Shown here: positions 1 through 7,153 of the stretch, one piece after another
Position numbering within the stretch: position 1 is the stretch's first letter
How the letters are laid out: every line of letters begins with the position of its first letter
DNA from: Candidatus Iainarchaeum sp.
GTDB taxonomy: Archaea > Iainarchaeota > Iainarchaeia > Iainarchaeales > CSSED10-239
Reading direction: 5' to 3'
Length of the DNA: 7,153 bases
Assembly (NCBI GenBank): GCA_937968065.1
Contig: CALBUD010000072.1
Coordinates: forward strand, 1 to 7,153
The notes under the pieces: model-generated
Told to the model about the DNA's origin: nothing
The model's input: only the letters and a program-made list of their open reading frames with translations
The model's database searches: none
Made by a program: the position numbers and the translations under genes

Positions 1-1488
1 GGAATTACTAAAATATATAAAATTATAAATAAAGAAAATAGAGAAGCTATAGAATTTATATTAGATAGTCAAAGTAAATTAAATTATAAATATGTAACTT
101 TACCAGAAGTTAATGAAGGAACATTTATAACTACCAGAGATATTTTTTCTCAATTTGGATGAAATACTGCTGAAATGAATAATGTATATATTTCTATAGA
201 ACAACAAAAATTATCTCCAAATGAAGAATGAGTTGAAGCAAAATATATAATCCCAGAACAATATGATATTAATGAATTAGATATTTTAAAATCTGGAAAT
301 ATATTAAGAGGTAAATTTCTTATTGAAAATCAAACTATTGATCCCGGATTTAAAGATGTTACTGATGATTTAATTGTTAAATTAAGTGAAAAAAGAAATG
401 TAGATAAACCGGAAGGATTATTTATAAAACGAAAAGGAGATTATAGAGTAAGATATAATGCAAATTTATATCAAACAGATTATACTTCTGATAAAAATAA
501 ATTTGTAAAAGGAAATTCATTTGTAGTTTTAACTTCTGAACAACAAACATCAGAAGGATATTCTAAATCTGGAAACAAGACATATAGAGTAATAGGACGA
601 TCTAATGAAAAAGTAACATTAGAGTATAATGCTTTTAATAAAAATGGTAAATTATTAAGTATTATTAAAGAATTAAAGATTGATGAATTTTCTGAAAAGA
701 TAAAATGATTATATGTTATGAAAGGAAGTCCTGAACATCATCAACTTAAAGAAATTCAAAATAAAAAGGAATTAAAACAAGTTGAAAAAGAAGCAAAACA
801 AAAAGCAACTAATAAAAAAGAATTATACAATACTTTACAATTAAAATTTCAAAAAATTTTTAAAATAAAAGTTGAATTACAAAATCATGATTCAGGTCAA
901 TTTAAAAATAAAAAAGCATGGATTAATGCTGATCCTTTAGGTAAACCTACTATTGTATTAAATACAGCAAATATTAATACATCAGAAGAAGATTTGATTC
1001 ATGAATATTTACATTTATTTTTAATAGCTTTAAAATATAATGAAACTGATCCAAAAGGACCAAGTTCTTATGAAAAATTATTGTTAGATTATAAAAATTC
1101 TTTTGAAGGTAAAACTTCTGAAGATCCAAAAAAACAACAAAGAATTGATTCTATAGTAAATACAAATAATATAAATACATTAGAAGAATTTTTTGTTCAA
1201 GATATTAGTAAAATAATGGTTGAACAAAATTATCAAGACCTTGATGAATTTAACTTTGATAATTTTTATCAAGCAATAAATAATTCTTTAGAAAGTTTAG
1301 AAGTAGAAAATACAACTCCTTTTGCTGATGATTTATTTGGAATATTAACACATAAAATGTCGTCTATATTTCCAAGAATGAGAGATAGTCAAATGAGTAA
1401 TAATAGTTTAATCTTATTTGACGCTAACTTTAGAAATTGATTAGATAACCAAATTAGTAAGAAGAAAATTGAAATTTTATGTCAATAA
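1..1488 (+). CDS. 5'-truncated large protein (495 codons visible). The C-terminal part has a coiled-coil-like segment and an HExxH zincin-like metallopeptidase motif. Requires TGA=Trp.
   Basis: Checked codon by codon, frame 1 is open from base 1 to TAA at 1486-1488. The only interruptions are TGA at 160-162, 229-231, 706-708 and 1438-1440, with no TAA or TAG. Track ORF 718..1440 is the largest standard-code fragment of this gene. The sequence has a Lys/Glu-rich stretch (...LKEIQNKKELKQVEKEAKQKATNKKEL..., about 745-830) and then ...GKPTIVLNTANINTSEEDLIHEYLHLFLIAL, with HEYLH at 1000-1014. Confidence 0.8.
1000..1014 (+). other. HExxH (HEYLH) candidate zinc-metallopeptidase active-site motif within the 1..1488 CDS
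   Basis: The codons are cat gaa tat tta cat. They follow a predicted beta-like stretch (PTIVLNTANI) and an acidic turn (SEEDLI). They are followed by a hydrophobic helix-like stretch (LFLIAL). This is the usual zincin context of strand, then helix carrying HExxH. I could not identify a third metal ligand. Confidence 0.4.
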
Positions 1489-4400
1489 GTCAATGTACAT
1501 ATTCAATTCCTGATGAAAATAAAGTCGGATTAGATTTTATTTCGTTAGTAAAACACTATTATAAATCAACAAAAATATTAAAGAATAGTAATATATTTAG
1601 TTCTGATGAAATAGTAGAAAGTGTTACTAAAAAATTAAAGGAACAATTAAATTTAAAAGATGATATTATCAATAATATAATTACGGATGGTAGAGGTAAT
1701 AAAGTACAATTAGATAAGAACGATATTAAATCTGCTTTGGATTTTATTGTTGCTAATAATTTACAATTATACAAAGAAATTGGTATAAGTCAATCTCAAT
1801 TATCTCCAGAATACATTAGAGAAAATAGAATATTAAATTTTATTAAAAATTCTCTTTCTGATCAAGGATTACGTATTGAAGAAAAAGACACTTTATCAGA
1901 TTTAAAAGTTAAATATGCTGATGAAGTAAAACCAATTGAAGAAGATATAATAGAAACTTTAGAAATAGAAGAAAAAACAAATGCTATTGGTAGAGCTTTA
2001 CATAAGACTTTAAATAATATAGTACTTGACGAAGGAACACTAACTCAAAAAAGTTTATATCATTTACGAAAAGTTTTAGAAGAAAATCAAGAAATATTAG
2101 ATGGAGATTTAGATGATTGAGTAAATCATTTCTCAAATATTGTAAAACAAATTTATTTTTCAATAACATCTAAAGGTAGAGTTTTATCTGAAGTTTGATT
2201 AAGATCCAATAAAGAAGCATTAGCTCAAGTTAAAGGAGCTATAGATATTTTAATTGTAGACGATTTTGGTAATGTTCATATATATGATTTAAAATTATCT
2301 AAACATAAATATGATAATTGAGATTCAGCTAAGAAATTAACAACTGATTGACAGTTAGCGTTTTACAGAGCATTACTTGGACAACATGTTCCAATTAATA
2401 ATACAGAATTAAATTTAATTTCTATTGTAGTTGGAGATTATAATGAATCTAAAAAATTACAATTAAAAAATGTAAGATTAGAACCTATAAGAAATAGATT
2501 AGCTGATGAAACAGGTAAACCTTTACAAATTGTTAATAAAGATTTAAGTACTGATTATGTTCCTGGAAAATTAACATTAGGTAAAATGTATTTAATTGCT
2601 AGGAAATTAATTCCTGAACAAAAGCAATTAGACTACGATCCTAAAAGAACAAAAGATATAAATGATACATTAGCATTAATGTTTCCTAATTATAAACCAT
2701 TAATTAGTAGATCTGAAGCTGCTTTTGATGTAGAAGTTGAATTGAAAAAAGCAATACGAAATTCTGGATTTACTTCAAAATATTCAGATTTTGTTCACGA
2801 AGGAGTAAAAATTAGTAGAAATGGTTGAGTTAGTGTAGATCCTAAAATAGATGAAAGATTTAAAACATCTAAAGAATTAGAAGATGAACTTAGACCAATA
2901 TTACAACATTATGCAGAGTTTGTTAAAAGTAATGAAAATAATATAATTTCTAGACTTAGAAATACTATTTCTCAAGCAATTCAAAACCAATCAGTAACTA
3001 AAATAGATTTAAATAACGCTCAAGAATCTGCATTTGTTAAAAATGTAGTAAATAAATATGTTAATGGAGATTATAGATTAATAAGTAATTCTGAGGAATT
3101 AGATTCTTTAGGTTTAATTCTTTTACAAAATACTAGAACTGGAGCATATGTTATATTAAATGTTACAGTAAATAACTTAAAAGTTCAATATGACGAAAAT
3201 TATTCTATTGCAGATATAGAATATATTAAAGCATTAACTTTTTTCAATTTCTTTGAATCAGAATTACAATTAACTCTGAATAAAATTGAAAATATAGAAG
3301 TTATGAATATTGATGCTAATAGAAATGCTAATAGAAGTTTAGATCATGTTTTTGAAATATACAGTAATACTATATCTCCGACAGGTATAACAAATAATTT
3401 ACATAAAGATCATTTATTGAATAATGTTCAAAGAGCAGAAGAATTAGTTAGACAAGAACACAGAAGAGCTTTTAATGAATTACCTGAAGGTGACAAACAA
3501 GCTATTAAAGAAATTCTTGATGAATATGATGAAGCTGCCGGTAACTTAAGTTTATTTCAATTAAAAGAAATAACTAGAAAATTTGTTAAACAATATCCTG
3601 AATTAGAACAGAAAACATATAAAAGTGGATTTGATTTTAATAACCCAATTGAAAGATTATTTGCTTATATTCAAGTATTATTATTAGCTAAAGCTGATAT
3701 AATTCCAGAAGGAGACCTTGAAGGAAATAATAATTATAATATTAGATTTTCAAACTTAAAAACTTTCTTTTCTGGTTTATTATCTAAAGATATAAGAGTA
3801 TATGATGAAAATGAAAGAAAATTAGGTGGATTAATTGAAGGTTTAAAAACAAGTACTCCTGATAAAATGAAGTCCAAAGATTTACAAAATATTAATGGTC
3901 TTATCAATGGTACTAACAATAGAATAGGTAGTAGATTTATACATGAATCAGTTATACTTAATAATGCTACTAAAAAATACTATAAAGATATAAATTATGA
4001 TTGAGTTTCTGAAAATGTAATTGCTAATCATAGAATAAAATTTAAAAATCTTTGAGTAACAGACAATTTAGGAAATGTAACTGGAGAATGACGTGTAAAA
4101 AATCCATATGATTATAGTCCTGAAAATGCTTTAACTGATGCAGAAAGAGAATATTTAAAACAAATATTATTTAGAATATATATTAATGGAATTAGTTTAC
4201 CTAAAGCTAAATATGATGCTATAGATATTAGTTCTATTGATAGTATTATGAAAACTGCTCCAGAATCTATGATTGAAAAAATTAATAAAGGTACTTATTT
4301 TGAAATGCCTATTATTAGATCTCAACAATGAAATAGATATGATAAAATTTGAGGAAGAGGATATCAAGGAATATTAGATACTGTTAAGTCTTTAGGTCAT

Positions 4401-6212
4401 GAAATCCATGATTATGTTGACGGAAGAGAATTAGAACCAGAAGAACTTCATAATATTAAAAAAGAAGCTGGGTTTTATGAAATGTACGATGTTTATGCTA
4501 AACAAAGTAGACAATTTATTCAAGATAAAGTTGCTGAAAAGGGAGAAGCATATTGAGAGTTAGATTTAGATGCTATTGCACATAGAGTAATTTTTAATAA
4601 AATAAGAAAAAAATATTTAGACAATATTCTTCCCGTAATCAGTGCATATATTTGAACTGCAAAAATTAGTGGAGGAAAACAAAATATAGATATTTCTAAT
4701 GAATTAGAATATGCTTTAAGAAGATTAAAATTAGCATCTAAAGATGAACATATTATTGATGAAGATTTTGAAGATGTAGTAAGTTTAGCAGGAACAGCAA
4801 AAAGAATTACTACTAAAGCAATGTTAGCATTTCGTCCTGCATTACTAGTTAAAGAATTAACTATTGGTCTTTATAAAAATTATATGTTAGCAGCAACTCA
4901 AATGTTAGGTGAAGATCAATTTAATATGTCAGATTTAACTAAAGCTATAGGTAAATTAATGAGTATTGATAACAAATTTAGTGCAGAATGAAATTTAATT
5001 GATATGATTAATTCTGAATATAGGTTTGCAAACTTAGAATTGGGTACACTTCCTAATAAATATAAAACTAATAGAAAAGTTGGATTTTTTATGGGATTTG
5101 GTAAATGGATGTTTTCTATGAATACTATTCCTGATTATTATAATAGACTTTCTTTATTCTTAGCTAAAATGATTCATGATGGTTCATATGATGCCCATGT
5201 TATGGATGAAAAAGGACATTTAATATATGATCCTAGAAAAGATAAAAGATTTTCATATTATTTTGAAAATAGAGACAAACATAAAAATTCAAAAGGTCAA
5301 TATATTCCGGCTAAAAATGATTCAAAATATAATAAACAAAGAAATCTTTATTTGTTATTAATTAATCAAATATCAAAAGAAAGACAAATTCAGGGTGATG
5401 ATATTTTTACAGAAGAAGATTTAATTGATAAAGCTTATTCAGAACAAGAACGTAATTCATTTAAATCATTTACTGATACAGTATATGGTTATTATGATAA
5501 AGATTCTCAAGCAGAATGACATAATGCGTGATATGGAATGTTGTATTTACAATTCTTACAATTCTGACCTGGTAAAATGAGTTTATGATTTGGAACACAA
5601 TATAATAAGAAATTAAGTCCTATTGGAAAACATGTTCATAAAACTCAAAAAGACGCTAATGGTAAAGAACAATTAATGTATAAAAAACCTCTTTATGAAG
5701 ATCCTGCTAATCCTGATGAAATTACAGGATGAGAACCAACTACTGAAGACACTGGGGATCCAATATTAGAATGACAAGGTACAGCTTACGAAGGATTATA
5801 TTTTTCAATGTTACATACATTAAGAGATATTCTTAAAGGAGATTGAGAAAATATTAAAAATGAAAAAGTTAGAAGTAGAAGAGCATTATATGGTTTAGCT
5901 GAAGGATTTTTAATGTATGCTTTTTTCAAATTCTTACAAATGTTATTTGAAGCATGAATTTCACAAAATGGAACTGATGGTATAAATGGAGAAACAATGG
6001 AATTTATGGCATCTGTTAATAGAAAAGTATTAAATGAATCAAATGTATTAGACAATACTTTTGGAGCATTAAGATCTGAACCAGCTTTTTGAACTTATAC
6101 TATGCAAGTATCTCAAGATATGTATGATGTAATGACAGGATCTGGAAATAGAACTCCTCAAAAATTATTAGCTCGAAATATTAGAGCTTTTGAATTTTGA
6201 GATAATCATTAA
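1479..6212 (+). CDS. Giant 1577-aa protein with an N-proximal RecB/Cas4-family PD-(D/E)xK nuclease domain. The rest is unassigned, with an aromatic/Trp-rich C-terminal region. Requires TGA=Trp.
   Basis: Track ORFs 1479..2120, 2586..2828, 3303..4004 and 5004..5519 all lie in frame 3. I translated the gaps between them and every interruption up to TAA at 6210-6212 is TGA. There are 23 in total: 2118, 2196, 2319, 2349, 2826, 4002, 4053, 4089, 5517, 5529, 5565, 5586, 5730, 5772, 5844, 5955, 6090 and 6198, plus five more between 4300 and 5000. No frameshift is needed. ATG 1479 is the first ATG after the in-frame TAA at 1458-1460, and it overlaps the stop of the upstream gene. Only one TGG codon occurs in this gene (GKWMF). 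Confidence 0.85.
2190..2366 (+). other. PD-(D/E)xK nuclease core motifs (RecB/Cas4/AddB-like family) inside the giant CDS
   Basis: The translation is ...LSEVWLRSNKEALAQVKGAIDILIVDDFGNVHIYDLKLSKHKYDNWDSAKKLTTDWQLAFYRALL. GAID (Asp at 2244-2246) matches the GxxD motif II. IYDLK (Asp 2286-2288, Lys 2292-2294) matches the hhDxK motif III. QLAFY (Gln 2352-2354, Tyr 2364-2366) matches the QxxxY motif IV typical of RecB-family nucleases. A candidate motif I Glu lies at 2190-2192. There is no Cys cluster, so this is not an Fe-S Cas4-type variant. Confidence 0.7.
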
Positions 6213-6255
6213 AAAAATAAGCCCGACCACATTACGTGATCGGGCTTATTTATTT
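6211..6255. terminator. Bidirectional rho-independent terminator between the convergent giant gene and the SLT gene
   Basis: A GC-rich hairpin has arms AAGCCCGAcCAC (6219-6230) and GTGaTCGGGCTT (6236-6247), with one mismatch and a loop of about 5 nt (ATTAC). An A7 run lies upstream (6211-6217), which reads as T7 after the hairpin on the minus strand. TTATTTATTT lies downstream (6246-6255). The element sits 7-8 nt after the + strand TAA and about 16 nt after the minus-strand TAA. Confidence 0.8.
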
Positions 6256-6262
6256 AAATGAA

Positions 6263-7000
6263 TTAGGCAGGATACATTTTAAGGTATTCTGTTATATGTG
6301 TTTTATTGGCGTCTCTAAATCCTTGCTTTGCTAAAGGAGAATTTCGTGTACCAAGAAAATAATCTTTAACCGTACCTGCACCTAATAAGTGTGCAGCAGC
6401 TCTAATACCATTTTTTGTTATTTTAATTCCATCAACTGTTTTTCCACTAAACTCTTCAATTATATCTTTTAATCTACGTTCATTAAGTCTAGCTAATTCT
6501 AATGCTCCTTGATGTTGAACCAAAGTATCTTTAAATTGTTCTTTTGTTTTACCAATATCTTTTAAAGCTATGTTTCCAAATTGATATAAACCATAATAAC
6601 CAAGTCTATTTGTAACATCTGGTCTATAACTACTTTCTTTAGCTGCTAATTTTATTAAATAATCTTTATCTTCATCAGATATAGATAATCCTTTTATTTC
6701 GTCAATTATTTTATTAGATACTTCACTCATAGGTCTTAATATTTCAGGTGTTAATTCGTAATCATTAAAAACTTGTTTTGGTTTAGAAACTTCAGGAATA
6801 CTTATATTACTTAAATCTCATTTTTTTGGTTTATCTATGGATTTAGTTCCTTCAATAGAAGGTATATCTTGTTCAGTTATATTAAAATAATTTCTAAAAT
6901 AGGTATTATCAGGAAGAGCTATATTATAAGTATTATAATAATCTAACATCTCTTCTTTATTATTTAAACTTATAGGTTTAAATTCTGCAAATTGTTCCAT
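6263..7000 (-). CDS. Lytic transglycosylase / lysozyme-like (SLT domain) protein of 245 aa from ATG 7000 (251 aa if the TTG at 7018 is used). Has one in-frame TGA=Trp. Candidate endolysin or virion-associated peptidoglycan hydrolase.
   Basis: Track ORFs 6818..7018 and 6263..6730 are in the same minus-strand frame. They are separated only by TGA (6820..6818), and the 87 nt between them contain no stop (...KPKK-W-DLSNISIPEVSKPKQVFNDYELTPEILRP-MSEV...). The stop is TAA (6265..6263). The C-terminal half carries SLT-like motifs: AAKESSYRP (catalytic-type Glu-Ser, Glu at 6637..6635), GYYGLYQFG (the GLxQ motif, about 6599..6575) and AAHLLGAG (6397..6374, equivalent to the AYNxG region). There is no signal peptide or TM segment at the N-terminus. 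Confidence 0.8.
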
Positions 7001-7022
7001 AATTAATAATTTTATCAATTAG

Positions 7023-7054
7023 CAAAGTTAAATATATATTTTCATAAAATTATA
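7023..7054 (-). promoter_or_regulatory. Candidate promoter region for the SLT gene: a Bacteroidota-type -7 element TAnnTTTG and/or a TATAAT box
   Basis: The minus strand reads 5'-GATTTTTATATAATTTTATGAAAATATATATTTAACTTTGCTAATTGATAAAATTATTAATT-ATG. TAACTTTG (7030..7023) matches TAnnTTTG and ends 22 nt before ATG 7000. TATAAT lies at 7054..7049. There is no clean upstream TTTG at the expected spacing, and the AT-rich background makes chance matches likely. No Shine-Dalgarno-like purine tract precedes the ATG. Confidence 0.25.
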
Positions 7055-7062
7055 TAAAAATC

Positions 7063-7108
7063 AAAAAAAATAGGGGAATAAAGCAAATACGCTTCATTCC
7101 CCATTTTT
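7063..7108 (-). terminator. Rho-independent terminator, probably ending a minus-strand transcript that enters from the right edge. It also has a weaker T-run on the + strand.
   Basis: The hairpin arms are GGGGAATaAAGC (7073-7084) and GCTTcATTCCCC (7091-7102), giving 12 bp with one mismatch and a 6-nt loop (AAATAC). An A8 run at 7063-7070 reads as T8 following the hairpin on the minus strand. A T5 run lies at 7104-7108 on the + strand. These are the only GC-rich islands in an otherwise AT-rich spacer. Confidence 0.65.
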
Positions 7109-7153
7109 GTTGTGCAAATTATTAAATAATCATTAATTAAAAAAAATAATTAA

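Follow-up and report, generated by a model that had tools for sequence, protein, structure and literature searches.

The contig CALBUD010000072.1 (7,153 nt), analysed here over its whole length and referred to as the window, contains near one end a minus-strand open reading frame (ORF), ORF C, that carries the motifs of a peptidoglycan-cleaving enzyme and is interrupted by an in-frame TGA codon. It is concluded, with fairly good confidence, that ORF C encodes an SLT/GH23-type enzyme of a divergent crAss-like phage of about 25% G+C, and that this phage uses genetic code 4 in its late genes, whereas its walled host, most likely a bacterium of the Bacteroidota, keeps the standard code.

The G+C content of the window is 24.6%. 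The window falls into short ORFs when it is translated with table 11; tables 4 and 25 give identical ORF maps with the following three genes.

ORF A, 1-1488, plus strand: final 495 codons of a gene whose product has about 1020-1260 amino acids; 4 TGA and 1 TGG codons.
ORF B, 1479-6212, plus strand: giant late protein of 1577 amino acids with a PD-(D/E)XK nuclease domain at residues 165-304, which closes the crAss-type transcription block; 23 TGA and 1 TGG codons.
ORF C, 6263-7000, minus strand: candidate soluble SLT/GH23-type peptidoglycan lytic transglycosylase of 245 amino acids; 1 TGA and no TGG codon.

Sense TGA codons amount to 28 in the window against 2 TGG codons (4:1 in ORF A, 23:1 in ORF B and 1:0 in ORF C). 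The stop codon is TAA in all three genes, and that of ORF C is located at 6263-6265. The open frame of ORF C extends from stop to stop over 6266-7018 of the minus strand (251 codons). The ATG at 7000 is taken as its genuine start, because all homologues open with M-x-x-F-A-x-F. Under table 11, ORF C is split into pieces of 66 and 155 amino acids. No Rfam family matches the window.

ORF C is composed of a conserved N-terminal module of about 48 amino acids, a variable linker and a C-terminal catalytic domain. The features of these regions are as follows.

Catalytic lysozyme-like domain (residues 91-245), 6263-6730, minus strand: assigned from invariant columns, predicted local distance difference test (pLDDT) scores and fold matches.
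E122-S123, 6632-6637, minus strand: invariant in 48 homologues.
G137-L-Y-Q140, 6581-6592, minus strand: G137 and Q140 invariant.
A201-G207 (AAAHLLG), 6380-6400, minus strand: conserved third motif.
In-frame TGA, read as Trp61 (codon 61), 6818-6820, minus strand: in the linker that separates the N-terminal module from the catalytic domain.
N-terminal module, 6857-7000, minus strand: F..F.PI...YY..N.....N..F..Y in the homologue alignment, role unassigned.

In the alignment of 48 homologues, no substitution occurs at E122, S123, G137, Q140, Q162, T195, G198, A201, L205, G207, D230 or Y239, while the conservation of A202, A203 and H204 is at least 90%. The Pfam SLT profile (PF01464) matches ORF C with E=1.8e-4 and 21.5 bits, which is a marginal pass of the cutoff of 21.3, and matches 38 of the 48 homologues, with a best E of 6.8e-9. 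The AlphaFold2 model of ORF C built from the alignment has a mean pLDDT of 85.9, and of 89-98 per ten-residue block at residues 91-245; E122-S123 is placed at the C-terminal end of helix 109-123. When ORF C is compared with the PDB by Foldseek, the top 50 matches are all lytic transglycosylases (phiKZ gp144, MltE, MltF, Slt70, MltC and MltD). The probability of these matches is at least 0.93, and about 1.0 for most of them, the E-values range from 2e-3 to 7e-2, and the identity to the characterised enzymes is 13-18% in most of the alignments listed. The BFVD matches are LT_GEWL/SLT phage proteins (best 1.6e-9), with tail lysozymes, T7-type internal core proteins, PRD1 P7 and phi12 muramidase among the further matches. 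PDB sequence searches, either with ORF C alone or with the family profile, give no match. This result suggests that ORF C represents a divergent subfamily, and therefore only the fold comparison ties it to lytic transglycosylases of solved structure. Neither a signal peptide nor a transmembrane segment is predicted for ORF C. Its N-terminal module has no match in Pfam, and a hidden Markov model of this module matches only SLT proteins among 929 ORFs of related loci. The family contains 1103 clusters (50% identity) at E<=1e-3 and 31 clusters at E<=1e-30. Sequence conservation and the structural model support the prediction of a soluble muralytic enzyme, of the SLT/GH23 lytic-transglycosylase type, as the product of ORF C. 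The first-pass annotation, which had assigned SLT-type motifs in a TGA=Trp context to this ORF and had named Foldseek as a means of examining it, is confirmed by the ORF, the 48-homologue alignment and the codon counts; the profile, the motifs and the fold, with lytic transglycosylases in all of the top 50 places, agree with an SLT/lysozyme-like identity.

Like the family 1 SLT/GH23 enzymes (Slt70, MltE, MltC, MltD and MltF), ORF C has E-S at a helix end, G-L-x-Q and an all-alpha lysozyme-like fold, but it lies at the Pfam threshold and has AAHLxG in place of AYNxG. This third motif, A-A-H-L-L-G (A202-G207), is kept in all homologues and is similar to A-Y-N-x-G in position, but differs from it in residues. 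The best PDB fold match of ORF C is phiKZ gp144 (PDB 3bkh), the endolysin of a Gram-negative jumbo phage. Both proteins are soluble, lack a signal peptide, and have one layout in common, in which a linker joins a small N-terminal module to a GH23-type domain at the C-terminus. ORF C differs from phiKZ gp144 in that the identity between them is only 16%, that its N-terminal module is not recognisable as PG_binding_1, and that its motif III is AAHLxG.

The meaning of TGA is indicated by a codon-by-codon alignment of ORF B with two orthologues, which gives about 60 comparisons at TGA. TGA is located opposite TGG in 7 cases, TAT in 11, TTT or TTC in 8, TTA in 7 and GGN in 0. When the TGA columns are compared with the standard-code homologue from phage MT835470, the residues are Leu (8), Phe (6), Trp (5), Tyr (5) and Gly (0), the homologue as a whole containing 6.4% Gly and 1.6% Trp. 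TGA in the window genes is assigned to Trp (code 4) and not to Gly, because TGG, TAT, TTT and TTA align with it and Gly codons never do. The codon alignments and the standard-code homologue therefore uphold the TGA=Trp context of the first-pass annotation.

The window itself holds no early gene, and the pattern of two codes is taken from four relatives with the gene order of the window (loci L007, L179, L004 and L001). Among the relatives with long flanks, L007 is the closest; 19 genes on its early side contain 69 TGG and 2 doubtful TGA codons, and three late genes contain 27 TGA and 5 TGG codons (Fisher p = 1.5e-17 for the early/late split). The early side of L004 contains 51 TGG and 0 TGA codons when its GIY-YIG gene is left aside, and the late side 33 TGA and 8 TGG codons (p = 9e-18). 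The corresponding numbers for L001 are 50 TGG and 0 TGA early, and 8 TGA and 21 TGG late (p = 2e-4). The early side of L179 contains 46 TGG and 2 TGA codons, both of the latter at gene ends. The early modules of the four relatives together contain about 216 TGG codons, with 0-2 questionable TGA codons each, and 19-23 consecutive early genes avoid sense TGA though the G+C content is 25-28%. The few TGA codons of the early modules are placed at gene ends; those of L004 and L001 that seem to be in frame are all located within ATGA overlaps with the next start codon, indicating that TGA is a stop codon in these modules. At L004 2033, L004 5759 and L001 2821, the TGA of such an overlap closes one early gene and the ATG opens the next; table-4 gene callers run through these stops and lengthen the upstream genes by 1-19 codons.

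The early module is selected for readability by a standard-code cell early in infection, because a genome of 25-28% G+C shuns TGA for Trp in one module and favours it in the other. A native TGA=Trp host is unlikely, because such a host would not impose an early/late split of TGA. This split is the decisive argument against a native code-4 host, and the SLT domain is a weaker line. Recoded phages are known to infect standard-code hosts and to recode lysis genes preferentially. A search for tRNA genes finds none in the window or in 21 loci, and no suppressor tRNA is found in about 60 kb of the 172 kb relative; code-4 phages have a detectable one in only 35% of cases (Borges et al., bioRxiv 10.1101/2021.08.26.457843).

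Two mobile elements are seen on the early side of the relatives. The GIY-YIG homing-endonuclease gene of L004 (7396-8127) contains 4 sense TGA and 1 TGG codons inside an otherwise TGA-free early block. In L179, a LAGLIDADG_3 endonuclease gene (5376-6248) divides an RNA-ligase-like gene (4650-7238) in two; the counterpart of this gene in L007 is one ORF of 450 amino acids. The insertion in L179 is probably of the intron or intein type.

Full-length ORF C homologues are found on metagenomic contigs of up to 172 kb, and their arrangement is constant. The homologues from NCBI sources are contigs of bulk metagenome assemblies, not genomes. In the relatives, a long same-strand run of replication and nucleotide-metabolism genes, including RNR, dUTPase, ligase, Thy1, PNKP and thioredoxin, terminates with the SLT gene, which lies tail to tail with an opposite-strand run of giant genes. 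The late block of the IMG/VR relative encodes, with some members left out of the series, proteins of 1468 and 450 amino acids, followed later by those of 1274, 623, 2899, 2952, 1176 and 1533 amino acids. In this relative (L184/L177; IMGVR_UViG_3300030685_000016, 172,188 bp), at least seven successive proteins, including those of 2899 and 2952 amino acids, exceed 600 amino acids, and the late block exits the contig end and continues at the contig start. The 172 kb contig is probably a complete, circularly permuted genome, because its late block wraps from end to start.

In the relative L178, the 2952-amino-acid protein contains a single DFDID at residue 1972, and its gene immediately precedes the homologues of ORF A and ORF B. 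The DxDxD (DFDxD) motif is reported to be a signature of the virion RNA polymerase (vRNAP) of all crAss-like phages. The DFDxD motif is absent from the examined portions of the giant proteins of MT835470. Residues 165-304 of ORF B match a PD-(D/E)XK domain (PF12705, E=5.7e-8), and a PDDEXK domain within a large protein of the transcription block has been described as a crAss-like peculiarity. Clear homologues of ORF B, the vRNAP region and the 1468-amino-acid structural protein are found only in the unannotated gut phages MT835470 and MT835492, and the ORF B homologues detected in phages are those of MT835470, MT835492 and MT837483 only. The gene order of MT835470 is TerL, portal, major capsid protein (MCP), tail and giant proteins, and its portal matches only Crassvirales. 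TerL, portal and MCP are seen only in this more distant relative, and the comparison for the lineage of the window rests on giant proteins. The 1468-amino-acid structural protein of this lineage shows a faint match (E=2e-4) to virion proteins of Bacteroides phages DAC15 and DAC17. A nucleotide search of ORF B against the phage collection gives no match, and PHROGs has no families for the giant proteins.

Judged from this gene order, the window comes from a divergent crAss-like phage and covers the final part of its 'transcription gene block', at the junction where this block meets the end of the replication module. In place of the SLT gene, MT835470.1 has a gene for deoxynucleotide monophosphate kinase (L010 24064-24795). 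The SLT gene is therefore an accessory gene of the clade of the window, not a core crAss-like gene. The first-pass annotation had proposed a phage origin rather than a Mollicute chromosome, and an element whose code differs from that of its host. The former is in accord with the crAss-type block of giant genes, the location of the relatives on phage contigs of 150-172 kb and the absence of housekeeping genes from them, and the latter with the early TGG/late TGA split in the four relatives. The argument on which it had relied, that a peptidoglycan-cleaving enzyme would have no substrate in a wall-less host, is reasonable, but is weaker evidence than the codon split.

The host is probably a walled Bacteroidota bacterium with the standard code, because the closest cellular homologues listed are almost all from Flavobacteriia and because the genes are without Shine-Dalgarno sites. 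A scan of GTDB species representatives, seeded by one peptide pattern, gives as the best 80 cellular loci for the domain subfamily, to which the following figures apply, 78 from Flavobacteriia or other Bacteroidota and 0 from Mollicutes, with 36-46% identity. A Shine-Dalgarno-like site precedes 3 of 70 genes, under the 10% background. The phage relatives with known hosts include Tenacibaculum phages, cultured Crassvirales infect Bacteroidota, and one relative (of the L004 type) encodes a wall peptidase (Peptidase_M15_4). Among the matches listed, the closest cellular relatives of ORF C are the chromosomal 'LysM peptidoglycan-binding' proteins of Flavobacteriia (WP_237603839.1 of Aequorivita and a protein of 212 amino acids of Flavobacterium ginsenosidimutans). 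These proteins are 36-46% identical to ORF C over residues 118-243 and have the TxxGxxAAAH motif in common with it, but they have an N-terminal membrane anchor or signal, where the phage proteins have a private N-terminal module. The F. ginsenosidimutans homologue (L062 4264-6426) is membrane-anchored and is encoded immediately downstream of an MltG/YceG-like gene; the anchor and this neighbour are as expected for a periplasmic wall enzyme in Flavobacterium. The spacing between the homologue gene and the end of its contig is similar in many Flavobacterium assemblies, and the chromosomal neighbourhood may therefore be conserved. By its sequence motifs, the AAAHLxG lysozyme-like subfamily is common to Flavobacteriia chromosomes, an N4-like vRNAP and these phages.

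The region around ORF C contains the following putative transcription signals.

TAnnTTTG element TAACTTTG, 7023-7030, minus strand: 23 nt upstream of the ATG; may be a -7 promoter box of the Bacteroidota type.
Hairpin and T-run terminator, 7073-7102, minus strand: ends the upstream minus-strand operon; 13 pairs, 6 of them G-C, -25 kcal/mol.
Bidirectional hairpin terminator, 6215-6251, not assigned to one strand: between the convergent ORF B and ORF C; 17 pairs, 7 of them G-C, -21.4 kcal/mol.

ORF C is probably a single-gene transcription unit, because it is flanked by terminators. Four terminator-like sites are found in 6100-7153, where 0.2 are expected by chance, and the hairpin at 7073-7102 is kept in all orthologous loci. 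The TAnnTTTG box, which we take to resemble the Bacteroidota -7 consensus, is located 23-33 nt upstream of the SLT ATG in five of six orthologous loci; its reading as a promoter box is based on this conserved position, not on enrichment. An A+T-rich element, TTTTAT[GAC]AAAA[A]TAT, lies between the upstream terminator and this box (7031-7072, minus strand) and is kept in L004, L007 and L008; it may belong to the promoter or be bound by a late regulator.

The SLT genes of the window, L007, L008 and L179 contain no TGG. Each has either one or two TGA codons, which fall without exception in the linker, before the catalytic domain, and in each case the SLT gene is the first and only gene of the standard-code strand with a sense TGA. 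The TGA site of the window (KKwDLS, where w is the TGA codon) corresponds to YKwDFS in L179. The SLT orthologues of L004 and L001 contain one TGG and no TGA codon. These results suggest that the expression of ORF C is late and gated by the code. An internal start at Met90, which would give a domain-only product under the standard code, is rejected, since Met90 is not conserved in L007 or L008.

According to the mechanism proposed here, ORF C would be expressed as a transcription unit of its own, in the order terminator, promoter-like box, gene and terminator. In the sub-clade of the window, with TGA as the sole Trp codon or codons of the SLT gene, in the linker before the catalytic domain, the active enzyme would be completed only once the infected cell reads TGA as Trp, that is, late in infection. 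The enzyme would then cut the MurNAc-GlcNAc bonds of host peptidoglycan. By analogy with phiKZ gp144, the most likely role of ORF C, tentatively assigned, is that of a modular endolysin acting at lysis. In favour of this role, ORF C is soluble, modular and not fused to another protein, and related phages also have recoded lysins. That the linker TGA is a programmed gate, with an N-terminal peptide of 54-74 residues produced early and the full-length enzyme produced after the code switch, seems unlikely. If it were so, the N-terminal peptide might have an early function of its own, and the gene would be a built-in lysis timer separate from any holin.

The same enzyme of the same phage may instead be associated with the virion, packaged with the giant cargo proteins and the vRNAP and breaching peptidoglycan at infection rather than at lysis. 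This role is possible, because the same domain subfamily is present at the N-terminus (about residues 30-163) of the N4-like vRNAP of Pseudoalteromonas phage pYD6-A (L013 3914-8402), and forms the C-terminal 150 residues of a hypothetical protein of 1610 amino acids of Escherichia phage PJNS034 (L014 1-3474). Neither of these fusion proteins is annotated as a wall hydrolase. The pYD6-A domain is 34% identical to ORF C, and the podoviruses with such virion-borne domains likewise eject giant proteins including RNA polymerase. A role in entry is also favoured by the annotation of the pT24 homologue as a tail lysozyme, by the many tail lysozymes, T7-type internal core proteins, PRD1 P7 and phi12 muramidase among the BFVD matches, by the position of the SLT gene, which always directly adjoins the cargo/vRNAP block, by the lack of an export signal and of a holin neighbour, and by the separate M15 peptidase of the L004-type relative, which could be its endolysin. 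However, ORF C is a free-standing, unfused protein of 245 amino acids, unlike the lysozyme-like domains of podovirus virions (pYD6-A vRNAP and T7 gp16-type core proteins), and its gene is a separate, terminator-insulated unit on the strand opposite all structural genes. The N-terminal module is not found in any other virion protein, the standard-code relative MT835470 is without the SLT gene, and the small modular layout is like that of the endolysin phiKZ gp144. A catalytically inert lysozyme-like fold, which would bind peptidoglycan or another glycan without cleavage, is suggested by the deviation of motif III from AYNxG, by the identity of 13-18% to characterised lytic transglycosylases in most of the fold alignments listed, and by the failure of the family profile to match any PDB sequence. 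This account is improbable, because the Glu-Ser pair and the G..Q motif are invariant over 48 diverse homologues, which is the conservation pattern of an active site.

The remaining alternatives concern the code and the host. Identical ORF maps under tables 4 and 25 would also allow TGA to encode glycine, in a phage of Gracilibacteria or Absconditabacteria that share code 25, and code-25 phages of Absconditabacteria have been reported (Borges et al., bioRxiv 10.1101/2021.08.26.457843). However, no Gly codon lies opposite TGA in any of the approximately 60 aligned comparisons, the standard-code homologue has W, Y, F or L and no G at the TGA columns despite its Gly content of 6.4%, and TGA is treated as a stop codon in the early genes of relatives. 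Code 25 is rejected on the codon alignments and the residues of the standard-code homologue, and this account has almost no probability left. It is highly improbable that the contig comes from the phage or the chromosome of a native code-4 organism (of the Mycoplasma/Spiroplasma type, or an endosymbiont), in which the SLT-like domain would not cut peptidoglycan. TGA=Trp and a G+C content of 24.6% are typical of Mollicutes, TAA is the stop codon of all three window genes, and initiation poor in Shine-Dalgarno sites is also found in some Mollicutes. Against this origin, 19-23 consecutive early genes of the relatives avoid sense TGA, and early genes of the relatives end at TGA in ATGA overlaps. 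The contigs contain no housekeeping genes and represent phage genomes, 150-172 kb in size, that encode a crAss-type vRNAP. Among the matches listed, the domain is found in Bacteroidota and not in Mollicutes, and a second wall hydrolase is encoded in a relative.

Several points weigh against the conclusion that ORF C is a code-gated enzyme of a recoded phage of Bacteroidota. For the enzyme, the Pfam score is barely over the cutoff, the PDB matches of Foldseek have weak E-values, of which 2e-3 is the best, no PDB sequence is matched by the family profile, and the third SLT motif is AAHLxG instead of the classical AYNxG. The SLT proteins of the relatives from which the two-code pattern is taken are only 50-67% identical to ORF C. 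No suppressor tRNA, release factor or tryptophanyl-tRNA synthetase is found in the window or in about 60 kb of the 172 kb relative. For the host, the homologue scan was seeded by one peptide pattern, with the best 80 matches listed, and low usage of Shine-Dalgarno sites also occurs outside Bacteroidota. The window shows no enrichment of TAnnTTTG (15 found against 13.6 expected), and this motif is common by chance in A+T-rich DNA. The SLT gene has no holin- or spanin-like neighbour in L001, L004, L007 or L008; the single hydrophobic stretch above threshold near the SLT gene is internal to a protein of 154 amino acids of L008, encoded two genes upstream.

The code-4 recoded phages of standard-code hosts described previously (Ivanova 2014; Yutin 2021, PMC7886860; Borges et al.; Lera, PMC12386605) are likewise low in G+C. 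In these phages, as in the lineage of the window, sense TGA for Trp is concentrated in structural and lysis genes and the replication genes use the standard code. The recoded intron endonuclease of Agate phages is paralleled by the recoded GIY-YIG gene of L004, and the Zeta crAss-like phage Lera (PMC12386605) has lysin genes that, like ORF C, bear TGA. The lineage of the window differs from the known recoded phages in its G+C content (24-28% against 28-38%), and in its recoded lysin, which is an isolated gene on the standard-code strand and not part of a late lysis cassette. Unlike the known code-4 phages, it has shown no suppressor tRNA so far, in the window and about 60 kb of a relative. For ORF B, the vRNAP and the structural proteins, a single faint match is all that is detected among the known Crassvirales genomes in the phage collection, those of the Zeta group included.

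For annotation, these results mean that table 11 fragments the contig, and several database entries for the ORF C family appear to be truncated calls. The use of code 4 in late and lysis genes of phages with a code-11 host is already well established, including for crAss-like phages, and nothing here overturns current understanding. Three details are modestly new: the crAss-like lineage itself, which is very divergent and very A+T-rich, the position of the code boundary on an isolated lysin gene, and a lysozyme-like subfamily common to Flavobacteriia and an N4-like vRNAP. The range of crAss-like phages is extended to a lineage of very low G+C content, with genomes of 150-172 kb and giant proteins that are barely detectable from known Crassvirales. 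This lineage provides a clear case of two codes in one phage genome, in which TGA is a stop codon in the ATGA overlaps of the early module and encodes Trp in the late module. The boundary between the two codes coincides exactly with the isolated peptidoglycan hydrolase gene, in agreement with the published view that lytic functions are delayed by recoding.

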